In this document: in pieces, positions 17,036 through 46,703 of the stretch | Numbering within the stretch: the stretch's first letter is position 1 | Layout of the letters: the number at the start of each line of letters is the position of its first letter | From: Amoebidium appalachense | Taxonomy: Eukaryota; Protista; Ichthyosporea | Length of the DNA stretch: 64,000 bases | Reading direction: 5' to 3' | NCBI GenBank assembly: GCA_963693365.1 | Contig: CAVNZM010000015.1 | Location: 620,001-684,000 of the forward strand | The notes under the pieces: generated by a model | What the model was told of the DNA's origin: nothing | The model's input: the letters and a program-made list of their open reading frames with translations, nothing else | Databases searched by the model: none | Position numbers and translations under genes: made by a program

Positions 17036-20000
17036 ATGGAGGACATTGAGAACAGAGACCCCAACGTGGGCGCCACGCTCAAGCAGGTAAATATCACTAC
17101 TCCTCTCGTGTGCTTGTGTGTGTTTTTCGGCTTGAACGTGTTTCTCCACCAGTAGCAGAACACTGAGAGTAGACGTGCTCAGACAAGATTGCTTTATAGA
17201 ATCTGAACACACAACAGAACACACTGCATAAATATAAGAGGCAAGCCCATGCAAGGTTCTTTGGCTCATCGTTGCAAGCTCAAAATGGTATCCGTGTGCA
17301 TTTACTTCTTGTTCAAACTTCTAAGTATTTATCTGGAGTCAACAATCCGTTGGTTTCCTCGAGGCCTCTTGGCCAGAAAACTCCATATCTGACTACACGT
17401 TCCTACCCACACAGAAATACGCTGGAGTGATCACAACCAAGTTCATCTCCAAGGACGGAGCAAAACAGGCATATAAAGACGAAATAGATCTGGCAAAGGA
17501 AACATTTGGAGCAGGAGAGTTTGCATCCTCACTCCTTCACTGGGAACGTGCACTTCGAATTCTAATAGACAATGACCTTGGTGACCGATTGGTACCGAAA
17601 ATCACCAAAAAGATCCAAGAATGCAAGGCAAACATCACAAACGCAACGGACAGGTTAGCCGTGCAAAGGGAGGAGGAAGTTCTACTGGAAGCGGACAAGT
17701 TCGGTTTCCAGGAGTCAGAGAGCGGTGATTATGTGTGGTGGGGAGGGCAGACTTTGAAAATCTCCAAGAGGACATTTGGCCGGTTGATGGACCATCAGAA
17801 GGATGGAATCTCCTTTCTGTTCAGACGATGGACAGAGGGGCAGGGTGGCCTGCTTGCTCATGACATGGGGTAGGATTAGCCCCCCCCCCCGAAGTATTTT
17901 CTGAGAAGCCCCCTAACACGCGGGTACTGTGGATGACTTGGACCCCCCCCCCCTGGGGATGGGCTCTGACTTTTTTTACAGAATTATTACGTGTTGTTTG
18001 CATTCTGCATGGTGTTGTTCCTTAGCGGTGTCCCCCCCCCCCCCCCCCCCCCCTACCCTACCCCTTCCCCCGGGATAGGCTCTATTTATGATGCATACTC
18101 GTTATGTGTGGTTTGCACTCTGTATGGTTTTGTTCTTTATTAATGTGCACTTCGTACTATATCACACATTCTTGACCCCCCCCCCCCCCCCCCCCCCCCC
18201 CCCCCCCCGGACTCTATTCGTCCTTTTTGACAACCCATACTGCCATTTATCTACACTCAAATGCGATCCACAATTGTAGTACCCTCAAATGCTAGAAATG
18301 CATATCTTAGGAAGCTTTGTCTTTTTGTTTGGCCACAGCGTATTTTTCCTGGTATTTTCGTGAAAATAACTCCGAAAAGAACCATGATTGTGTTGCTGGT
18401 GGTGAATTGTTGAACAAGCACACATCTGAAACAGAGAAGGAAAACCACACGTGCAGGCTACACACTAACACAACATTATGCCTCAACCCTTCGAGCATGC
18501 AGGACTTGCACACAAACACAACCATATGACCATGCACACACATACAGCACACATCTATGAATAGGCACACAAGTGCATGTAAACTTGCGCACATAAGCAC
18601 CTACACACATGCCTGCACACACACAAACACATACACACACTCAAGTTGCGCATACGCAAACATTTCGCCTTCCCCTTTTTACCAACCCCCCTCCCCCTCC
18701 GAACACTCACACGTGTCCTCCCCCCCTTTCCCCTCCCCCCTTCCCCTATCCCCTCCCCCCTCTACACACACACCCATCCACACACACACACACACACACA
18801 CACACACACACACACACACACACACACACACACACACACACACACACACACACACACACACACACACACACACACACACACACACACACACACACACACA
18901 CACACACACACACATAGGCTGGGCAAGACCATCCAGGCCATCGTGTTTGCCAGCACACTTCTTGCATGCAGGAAAGTGCGCACAGTACTTGTGATCACCC
19001 CTAAGCCAGTCATAGCAAAGTGGGAGCAGGAGTGGAGGAAGTGGTATGTGAACCCTCGTTTGCCGCAACCCCTGCCCCCCCCCCCCCCCCCCCCCCCCCG
19101 GGCATCGTTGCTCTGTGTCGTGCATCTGTAAGCACATGCGCATTTTTCGCTGCACTGCATTAGTTTGCACACACATCTTCACCGTTTTACTCACCTTGCT
19201 TGCATAAGCAACCCTGCTCGTCTTTGATCAAGACGGATTGACCCGCCCAAGTTCAGTTGATGCTGCTGTCTGAGTTGGAGCGTCGTATATACGCGGGCTA
19301 AGGGGTCGAAACTCAGACGCAATTGATGACTTGGGTCCTCCCTGAGGATGGGCTCTGCTTATGACGCATACTGTGCACATGGCTGATGTTGCATACTTGA
19401 ATGTTTGCCTTTGCATGTGTCCTGCACCATGCTTCTCGTCGTGTATGCGTACCGTGTTCCTCATTCACCCCCCCCCCCCCCCCCCCCCCCCCCCCCCCCA
19501 TCGCCCGCGCAGATGGAAAGGCCCCCCCTCCCCCCTCCCACCTGTTTAACACTGGTGTCCAAGAGTATGAAACAGAATTTGTCAAATGCCACCTCCTTTT
19601 TTTTTTTCCTTTTTTAAAAAAGCCGATAACAGAGCAGACAGACTATAACCACCACTTATAAAAACAAAAACAAAAGCGGGTGTTAACAACCGTCAACTAC
19701 CCCACTGAAGATCACCCGGATTGTAAAGGCATGCAGTCATGAACTTTTATAATAGAAGCGATCCCCCCCCACCCATTACTATTCGGTGTGCATATTAGGA
19801 GAGTTGGGGTTGCTGCATCTAGTGAAGACAGTCAAACACGGGGATAGAAAGAGAGAGCACACCACAGCAACTGAAGCCAATCAAGTCACGTATTCGCAAA
19901 ACCACTTTGTTATTCTATGTGCTTCGATCCTCCCTTTTCTGTCTCTTTTTTTTATTCTCGTGAACACCAGAATTGGCTGCAAGTAGAAAGTGGGAACTGG

Positions 20001-45100: not shown

Positions 45101-46703
45101 TAAATCATAATGATGTCAGACATGAACGGAATCACTGATTGTTCTTGGCTGTAAATGAGGGTACCCGATTCCATTGCAAAATTTACTCAAGGCATGTGAT
45201 GTACACGTATTCCAACGAGGATAATAAAACTGCTTGACTAGTGATACAAAGATGTACTGTCTGGTTTTAAGGATATGGGGATTCCCATATATAGGGATAC
45301 CAGAGAAATGTCCACGTATTTGTGGAATGTCATTGCATACACACACACACACACAAAAACGTGTGCGCGCACACACACACACACACACACACACACACAC
45401 ACACACACACACACACACACACACACACACACACATCGTGACACACGCATACACACACACAAAAAGAAATCACGGTGTTGCCAATTAGGCGATCCCTCTG
45501 AAGCCATTTCCAATCTAACGGGGGGGTCTCAGATTCGGACGGCACTCGAAGCTGAAGGACATGGAGAACAGACTTTGCGGCAGATGTGGAGGGTACGTGT
45601 GTGTGTGTGTGGGGGGGGGGGGGGGGGGGGGGGTGCGTGTGCATGTGTATGTGTGTATCCCCCCCCACCCAACACACACACATACACACCCAACCACCCA
45701 CCACCCACCACCACCACCATCTCTCCCTGCATCTTGCTCCCTCGCTCGCGGCTGTGCCCCTGTGTGTGTGTGCATGTGTATATGTGTGTGTGCGTGCGTA
45801 TTGGTGTGTGTGCGCGCACGCGCTCGTACGTGTGTCCGTGCGTGTGTTTTGCACAATCATTGGAGACCAGATTGTGCTTTTACCATCAAAAGAAAACGAG
45901 AACTACGCCAACAAGGGGCTTCGAGAAATGAATAGTCAATTTGGGTATTTGGACCCCACTTTTGTGGATATGAAGGATTTTGTGTAGCTCAGACAGGTGG
46001 GCTTGTGGTTTACAACCCGTATGAGCCCTTCTTATGAGTTGCACTCTTATGTTAGTGGTGAGAAAAAAATGTGTGGGTGCTAACTAGGGGTGTGTGTGTG
46101 TGTGTGTCTACAGGAGGTTGGAAAAGCTGAACGACAAACCGCGCAAACTGAATGCATTTGCAATCTTCACGCAGGTGAGCAATATGACGTGTGTGTTGGT
46201 TGGGTTTTGCCCGTAGGAGGGTTTTCTCTGTGTGTGTGCGTGTATGATGGGGGGAGGGGGGGAGGGGGTTCAGAAAGCAGGTTGATAGTTCTATGTGGTT
46301 GCCCAAGCACCCTCTATGACTGCACGACCCCATGTATAAACACACACGTACACGCGGACATGCACACACGCACGCACACACTCACCCTCACACACGCACC
46401 ACACCAAACTACACAACTGCATGAGCGTGCACACACACACACGCAACTATAAAAGCACGCACACGCATCTACACACATAACACACACACACACACACACA
46501 CACACACACACACACACACACACACACACACACACACACACACACACACACAGCAAAACTACGGGCCGGTGAAGAGGGAGACGGGGGGCAGCCACAAGGA
46601 GGTTCTAGCCACCCTCCGTGCCATGTACCAAAGCCAGAAACCCAATCAGATCGAAGAGATTCCGAGTGACTTGACCAATCGAAGTGAAGAACTACCGACA
46701 TAG
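17036..46703 (+). CDS. Putative single gene: PICH/ERCC6L-like SNF2 translocase - acidic IDR - GCNA-like SprT protease/Zn finger/HMG fusion (~43 exons)
   Basis: The exon chain from ATG 17036 to TAG 46701-46703 keeps phase. It needs 1-nt homopolymer corrections (~26110, ~32490, ~36027, and ~17247 if optional exon 17199-17288 is used) and one CG acceptor (23610). I found no stop codon, independent start exon or clearly intergenic gap between the two halves. Confidence 0.65.
17920..18176 (+). mobile_element. Two partial tandem copies of the same short element
   Basis: CGGGTACTGTGGATGACTTGG..GGATGGGCTCTG (17920-17970) and GGATAGGCTCTATTTATGATGCATACT..GGTTTGCACTCTGTAT..CACATTCTTGAC followed by poly-C (18071-18176). 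Confidence 0.6.
19262..19468 (+). mobile_element. Short interspersed element copy (same family), intronic
   Basis: GGGGTCGAAACTC..GATGACTTGGGTCCTCCCTGAGGATGGGCTCTGCTTATGACGCATACT..CATTCAC followed by poly-C. Confidence 0.7.
21452..21540 (+). mobile_element. 3' fragment of the same short element
   Basis: TTGATGCATACCCTT..TTTGCACTCTGCATTTTG..CACATTCTAAC followed by poly-C. Confidence 0.55.
33874..33996. repeat. (TTC)n trinucleotide microsatellite, intronic
   Basis: About 40 TTC units with one interruption. Confidence 0.95.
36075..36258. repeat. Tandem duplication of ~90 bp of intron sequence
   Basis: polyA-CCACCACCACCACCCCC-polyC-ATCCCTTTCCTCAAAGTACCAACTTAC occurs twice. Confidence 0.8.
36820..38659 (+). 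CDS. Large internal exon encoding an acidic then S/T/P-rich intrinsically disordered region
   Basis: The 584-aa ORF 36967-38721 extends upstream in frame to a (CA)nCAG acceptor at 36819 (147 nt before the ATG) and ends at a GT donor at 38660. First half is E/D-rich, second half S/T/P-rich with many S/T-P sites. Confidence 0.9.
38942..46703 (+). CDS. GCNA: GCNA/ACRC-like C-terminal module: SIM-like/acidic motifs, SprT HExxH metalloprotease, C4 zinc finger, HMG-box-like end
   Basis: Exons 38942-38998, 39525-39578, 40394-40448, 41134-41261, 41829-41914, 42222-42281, 42837-42925, 43503-43567, 43953-44052, 44654-44764, 45533-45592, 46114-46174, 46554-46703. Product: [14 protein letters not shown]...[14 protein letters not shown]...[42 protein letters not shown]...[25 protein letters not shown]....LCGRCGGRL...[16 protein letters not shown]...SHKEVLATL. 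All junctions are GT-AG and in phase. Confidence 0.9.
44808..44980 (+). mobile_element. Short interspersed element copy (same family), intronic
   Basis: GGGTCGAAACTTGGGTACTGTGGATGAG..CCTCCCCTGAGGATGGGCCCTGCTTTTGATGCATA. Confidence 0.7.

Follow-up and report, generated by a model that had tools for sequence, protein, structure and literature searches.

Does a single gene of the ichthyosporean Amoebidium appalachense encode both a PICH-type DNA translocase and a GCNA-type protease? The question is raised by a 64,000-nucleotide (nt) stretch of its genome (contig CAVNZM010000015.1 of GenBank assembly GCA_963693365.1, positions 620,001 to 684,000), referred to here as the window and numbered from its first letter, for which a preliminary description had proposed a fusion of a PICH (ERCC6L) motor with a GCNA protease. 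We rebuilt the gene (17036..46703, forward strand) by joining exons by coordinate, and the resulting model of 43 exons runs from an ATG at 17036 to a TAG at 46703 and specifies 1981 amino acids (aa) with no internal stop. GT and AG bound 42 of the 42 introns, which measure 226 to 1336 nt (median, 548 nt). The predicted protein comprises, in this order, a PICH-type SNF2 motor, an acidic linker, an SprT domain with the signature HEMCH, a C2C2 zinc finger, and an HMG-like end. The motor and HExxH signatures are intact, as had been claimed, with GKT at aa 171, DETH at aa 273, motif VI at aa 686, and HEMCH at aa 1830. The proposed fusion is upheld by this open 43-exon chain and by an annotated protein of Creolimax fragrantissima, CFRG1346T1, which has the same architecture. 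What is new in the predicted protein is the combination of two known families, PICH and GCNA, in one chain. The reading frame is off by 1 nt at a run of seven G residues (26107-26113) in exon 12, within an insertion of the SNF2 half, and this break is likely a homopolymer error of the assembly.

The assignment of the motor to PICH, made in the preliminary description, is borne out by motif alignment, by a profile of the PICH family domain, and by the SNF2 phylogeny. Motifs I to VI of the SNF2 ATPase and HELICc regions all align to human PICH, which is 30% identical to the window protein over 698 aligned columns. Downstream of the helicase core, the PICH family domain was recovered by alignment and by our own profile, matched over 60 positions (E values, 7.6e-6 [window], 9.7e-12 [Creolimax], and 7e-4 to 2e-3 [CSB-like controls]); the domain of the window is divergent. 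Nine of the 10 top matches that were looked up are named ERCC-6-like. The SNF2 cores of the window and Creolimax are sisters both in a FastTree phylogeny of 132 rows (0.999), from which 20 of 149 matches were dropped as their core could not be cut, and in an IQ-TREE phylogeny (98) of 29 hand-chosen rows, among which ERCC6L2, RAD54, and ATRX rows are not represented. The possibility that the motor is a CSB protein was ruled out, since in the IQ-TREE phylogeny the two cores stand apart from the CSB-like outgroup rows (100); P0147 was confirmed as CSB.

The region encoded by exons 1 and 2, which can be aligned with the N-terminal helical bundle of human PICH, gives a weak match to a profile of the animal PICH N terminus (E value, 1.6e-4 on the single-sequence scale), and an AlphaFold2 model based on a 29-row alignment consists of three helices with a predicted local distance difference test (pLDDT) score of 89; exon 2 folded from a single sequence was uninformative (pLDDT, 44). 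For the three-helix model, no fold match in the PDB was found at an E value of ≤0.001, the matches to MIT and TPR folds being weak. At the other end of the motor half, the C-terminal TPR of PICH was not detected by the TPR2 profile in the window or the Creolimax fusion, nor did residues 701 to 1250 of human PICH, from the tail that in animal PICH holds the SUMO-interacting motifs and binds PLK1, give a BLAST match in the window or either fusion. Judged from its sequence, the motor of the window is a PICH-derived motor module and not a full animal-type PICH.

The C-terminal half was likewise assigned correctly to GCNA, as its four-part layout, its Pfam match, and its ranking in the ESM Atlas indicate. 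GCNA proteins consist of an intrinsically disordered region, an SprT domain, a zinc finger, and an HMG domain (PMC5098910), and the C-terminal half of the window protein has all four. Pfam PF10263 (SprT-like) matches exons 37 and 39, with an E value of 2.9e-9 on exon 39 alone, and the zinc finger and the two-helix HMG-like end were recognized by alignment to GCNA-like proteins. In the ESM Atlas, the C terminus of the Creolimax counterpart ranks GCNA-type clusters (0.92 to 0.94) above an SPRTN-like cluster (0.89).

Between the two halves, the predicted linker (aa 810 to 1750) consists of 38% D/E/S/T and of 17% ILVFWYC, compared with 31% ILVFWYC in the core. This composition suggests that the large disordered region characteristic of GCNA is present upstream of the protease. 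The linkers of the window and Creolimax fusions are ~940 to 1090 aa long, and acidic motifs resembling SUMO-interacting motifs (SIMs) were found by our own regular expression twice in the window linker, five times in the Creolimax linker, and not at all in human PICH. Two further features of the linker were observed. Exon 32466-32584, directly after the PICH family domain, is rich in RG/RGG and is possibly a nucleic-acid-binding or methylated patch. Thirty S/T-P sites lie in aa 805 to 1750, eight of them of the S/T-P-x-K/R type and four of them STP, a pattern that suggests control by CDK or Polo kinases.

It is very probable, as judged from the genomic exon structure, that the PICH-type and GCNA-type exons of the window belong to one gene. 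The linker exons named in the preliminary description recur in the rebuilt model, and neither of the two frame corrections that it had called for is needed: at ~32490, exon 32466-32584 is already in frame, and at ~36027, phase is restored once an overlooked exon (35544-35595, exon 27) is added. Introns 22 to 30 are of ordinary size (226 to 651 nt). Linker exons were scored with splice-site matrices and a coding model trained on homology-supported exons, and, as a control for chance, each score was compared with that of the best pseudo-exon in 25 homology-supported introns. In none of the 25 control introns does the best pseudo-exon reach the score of exon 22, 23, 25, 26, or 30; for exon 21, an equal or better pseudo-exon exists in 4 of the 25. 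Where PICH homology ends, the exon 22 donor lies at the 97th percentile and the exon 23 acceptor at the 99th percentile of the background, with CTAAC at −13. The first in-frame ATG of exon 30 comes no earlier than 36967. Because introns 22 to 29 are repeat free for 322 nt at most, compared with 1406 nt and 1094 nt in the window's two divergent 5' regions (the only two comparators), the linker has no promoter-like gap; introns and promoters could not be told apart by their CpG ratio. Exon 27 is separately supported because it holds a GCNA-style SIM-like motif that resembles those of stand-alone GCNA-like proteins.

The Creolimax counterpart CFRG1346T1 (EukProt EP01134 P001346) is a predicted protein of 2012 aa with the same domain order as the window model. 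Pfam recognizes SNF2, Helicase_C, and SprT-like in it above cutoff, and its zinc ribbon (PF17283) and HMG domain (PF00505) match below the curated cutoffs. It is the best SNF2 match of the window model among the 165 proteins compared, and the two are 31% identical over 776 columns and 32% identical over 335 columns. Their likeness extends to their length and to their sister position in the SNF2 trees; they differ in that CFRG1346T1 has a canonical LADD motif I. The fusion appears to have been kept across lineages that are only ~31% identical. The Creolimax genome was annotated by Augustus with RNA-seq hints and manual screening (PMC4739763), and CFRG1346 was not found in the main text or three supplements of that paper, as far as these were available.

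Several observations weigh against the fusion as read here. (i) The window SNF2 core forms a long branch in the IQ-TREE phylogeny, and its motif I (17850-17869) reads LAHDMG, the H replacing a D that is present in 126 of 126 matched homologs; the lysine of Walker A and the DExH box are intact, and H at this position occurs in ATRX and RAD54L2. (ii) An equal or better pseudo-exon is found for exons 24, 27, 28, and 29 in 25, 21, 8, and 13 of the 25 control introns, respectively; because these exons cannot be distinguished from pseudo-exons, the route of the exon chain from 34893 to 36819 is uncertain. (iii) Read-through of exon 22 meets a stop 18 codons on, at 33177, and exon 23 contains in-frame ATGs. 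(iv) A single transcript over both halves is predicted from a genomic exon model, and CFRG1346T1 is itself a predicted model. (v) The fusion is known from only two examples, whose linkers have no significant similarity and are unalignable and whose SprT halves are sisters in none of six trees.

The stop at 33177, with a poly-T tract after it, and the ATGs in exon 23 make it formally possible that the window holds two adjacent genes, a short PICH gene that ends near 33.2 kb or 35 kb and a GCNA gene after it, which gene prediction has merged here and in Creolimax. We regard this as improbable. The weak exons between 34893 and 36819 would fit it, as would the origin of the Creolimax model in an Augustus prediction. 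However, the strong exon 22 donor faces a strong exon 23 acceptor with a branch point, the phase-1 chain of exons 22, 23, 25, and 26 scores above all controls, and the promoter-like gap expected of a second gene was not found. Two genes would further require that the same neighbor pair and the same merging error recur in two genomes that are 31% identical. The failure of the SprT halves to group also favors two genes. When the two SprT halves were constrained to one clade, as a simple single origin of the fusion would predict, the approximately unbiased test gave P values of 0.036, 0.068, 0.143, 0.138, 0.421, and 0.262, so that the clade was rejected once and not in the five other runs; because of the ~200 columns and the long branches, we take the grouping to be undecided. 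Against two genes, PICH was found upstream in none of 80 metagenomic GCNA loci (the best 80 of 240, many of them near copies, with at least 8 kb of upstream sequence in only 21). In two of these loci, L052 and L073, which are near copies, GCNA is preceded at a distance of ~6 kb by an SNF2 gene; because stops and other open reading frames (ORFs) intervene, the pair does not qualify as a fusion. In L052, the SNF2 gene (9008-10882) looks SMARCAL1-like by eye, and the GCNA-like gene occupies 15668-16765.

A single locus could also give rise to more than one protein. Separate PICH-like and GCNA-like proteins would then arise through alternative polyadenylation, from an internal start, or because the SprT domain cuts its own chain, and the full-length chain would be a precursor or minor form; this we consider unlikely. 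Self-cleavage is a property of SPRTN and Wss1. An early stop is present in intron 22, and intron retention is the main mode of alternative splicing in Creolimax (PMC4739763). The polyadenylation signal AATAAA was not found in intron 22, which counts against several products; this test is weak because AATAAA is also absent within ~700 nt of the true stop. One gene with one long product remains our preferred model, and its parts are listed in Table 1.

Table 1. Parts of the PICH-GCNA gene model in the window
Feature	Position	Strand	Content
Exons 1-2	17036..17869	+	Start codon; predicted three-helix bundle at the N terminus (TPR/MIT-like, comparable to PICH); Q motif; first part of motif I (LAHDMG)
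Exons 3-17	18918..29609	+	SNF2 ATPase lobes; motifs I (GKT), Ia, II (DETH), III, IV, V, VI
G7 run in exon 12	26107..26113	+	One-base frame break
Exons 18-20	30184..31726	+	Aligns to PICH family domain; PICH homology stops here, at ~aa 804
Linker exons 21-26	32466..34892	+	RG-rich exon first, acidic exons after; exon 24 (34063-34080) weak
Linker exons 27-29	35544..36372	+	35544-35595, 35999-36056, 36325-36372; least secure exons of the model
Exon 30	36820..38659	+	1840 nt, acidic, S/T/P-rich region of predicted disorder; strong acceptor, CTAAC at −28
Exons 31-35	38942..41914	+	Remainder of the predicted GCNA-type disordered region; second SIM-like motif, acidic FIVPDD motif
Exons 36-39	42222..44052	+	SprT-like metalloprotease domain with HEMCH
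Exons 40-41	44654..45592	+	C2C2 zinc finger
Exons 42-43	46114..46703	+	Two-helix HMG-like segment, stop codon

The gene has neighbors on both sides. A multi-exon gene read by eye at ~9300-15170 on the reverse strand is divergent from it, and exons at ~50100-59100 on the reverse strand, which by eye presumably encode a major facilitator superfamily (Spinster-like) transporter, are convergent with it. Two further ORFs, 3361-3801 (reverse strand) and 5941-6918 (forward strand, with acidic repeats), gave no Pfam match. A 36-nt tandem repeat occupies 52700-52965 (7.4 copies, 94% matches).

The architecture appears to be rare in the sequences searched. A search for long SprT proteins returned three matches among 146 candidates, one of which is CFRG1346T1. 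Among 311 candidates, 11 SprT proteins of 1106 to 3521 aa were found, and SNF2 occurs only in the Creolimax query; in a further set of six candidates, none of four SprT proteins has SNF2. Conversely, SprT is present in none of the 149 other proteins among the best 150 HMMER matches to the Creolimax motor (84,384 matches in all). A metagenome scan with the Creolimax protein gave no match. The ESM Atlas, which covers only clusters of at least 50 members, matched the Creolimax protein as a whole to PICH-like clusters and its C terminus to SprT clusters, none of those shown having both families. Close relatives of the Creolimax protein may be hidden by clustering at 50% or by split gene models. 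In the literature on GCNA, PICH/ERCC6L, SprT, SNF2, and ichthyosporeans, no description of the architecture was found in titles and the beginnings of abstracts, most subscription papers lying outside the search; the available part of PMC5098910 mentions domain loss for GCNA and not a helicase fusion. The preliminary description was not aware of an earlier account of the architecture, and we also found no printed description; it is not unique to the window, however, since Creolimax has it in an unnamed database model.

What might such a protein do? We lean toward the view that the window encodes what is likely one PICH-GCNA protein of ~1980 aa that would track along DNA under the guidance of SUMO and remove trapped topoisomerase II (TOP2) and other DNA-protein crosslinks (DPCs), a coupling of functions that we infer from the two families. 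In animal PICH, three C-terminal SIMs and translocase activity lower the amount of SUMOylated TOP2A on mitotic chromosomes (PMC8565832; PMC7851874). SIMs recruit GCNA to SUMOylated DPCs (PMC9019546), loss of GCNA leads to Top2 DPCs and chromosome bridges (10.1101/570804), and the catalytic glutamate of GCNA is essential in zebrafish (PMC13092972). In the proposed mechanism, the GCNA disordered region would have taken the place of the PICH C-terminal tail and would supply the SIMs that animal PICH carries there. Through these motifs, the protein would dock on SUMOylated TOP2 or DPCs, both on ultrafine bridges and on the chromosomes of mitosis. The motor would translocate on double-stranded DNA and either dislodge noncovalently stalled enzyme or deliver the tethered protease, and SprT would cleave what the motor cannot push off, that is, covalently attached protein. 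Because the flexible linker is ~940 aa long, the coupling would be by tethering rather than through a rigid interface. This proposal has to contend with the statement that a direct demonstration of protease activity is still lacking for GCNA itself (PMC13092972), and both SIM function and TOP2 targeting are predictions for the window protein.

The motor and the protease of one fused protein might instead work independently, the fusion sharing only targeting and expression (one SIM-rich tail for both) with no stepwise hand-over of substrate. The linker would allow for this: it is long, has the composition of a disordered region, and shows no conservation from the window to Creolimax. Separate genes, moreover, suffice in animals (149 SNF2 matches without a fusion). 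We find independent halves rather unlikely, given that in animals PICH and GCNA both act on TOP2 and mitotic bridges and that the fusion appears to be retained in both divergent lineages.

Known systems share parts of the coupled TOP2 and DPC remover that we favor. PICH/ERCC6L (human NP_060139.2, P0168) has SNF2 motifs I to VI, the PICH family domain, and an N-terminal helical bundle like that predicted for the window, whereas the window protein has no detected C-terminal TPR or match to the human tail and carries an attached protease. GCNA/ACRC has the disordered region, SprT with HEMCH, the C2C2 zinc finger, and the HMG-like end, whereas in the window a whole SNF2 motor precedes the protease half. 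Yeast Uls1 and Schizosaccharomyces pombe Rrp1/Rrp2 also join, in one chain, an SNF2 motor and a protein removal module that acts on Top2, and Uls1 is a precedent for an SNF2 chain that antagonizes Top2 (PMC6614809); they differ in belonging to another SNF2 subfamily and in that they have no protease of their own to cut the target but mark it through a SUMO-targeted ubiquitin ligase. The DPC proteases SPRTN and Wss1 have the HEXXH SprT-like catalytic core (PMC13092972) and, unlike the window protein, no motor.

PICH and GCNA have been studied apart, although TOP2 and chromosome bridges are targets of both. With the two joined naturally in relatives of animals, it becomes testable whether eviction by PICH and proteolysis by GCNA belong to a single pathway and what switches GCNA on; the fusion also predicts a genetic or physical interaction of PICH and GCNA in animals. 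At its furthest, and here we are tentative, the finding may mean that a translocating DPC protease in a single chain is an ancient possession of ichthyosporeans, in which an ATP-driven DNA motor searches chromosomes and bridges during mitosis and passes trapped, SUMOylated TOP2 on to the metalloprotease of the same chain; this would reveal an unrecognized partnership of PICH and GCNA in animal germ cells and embryos.

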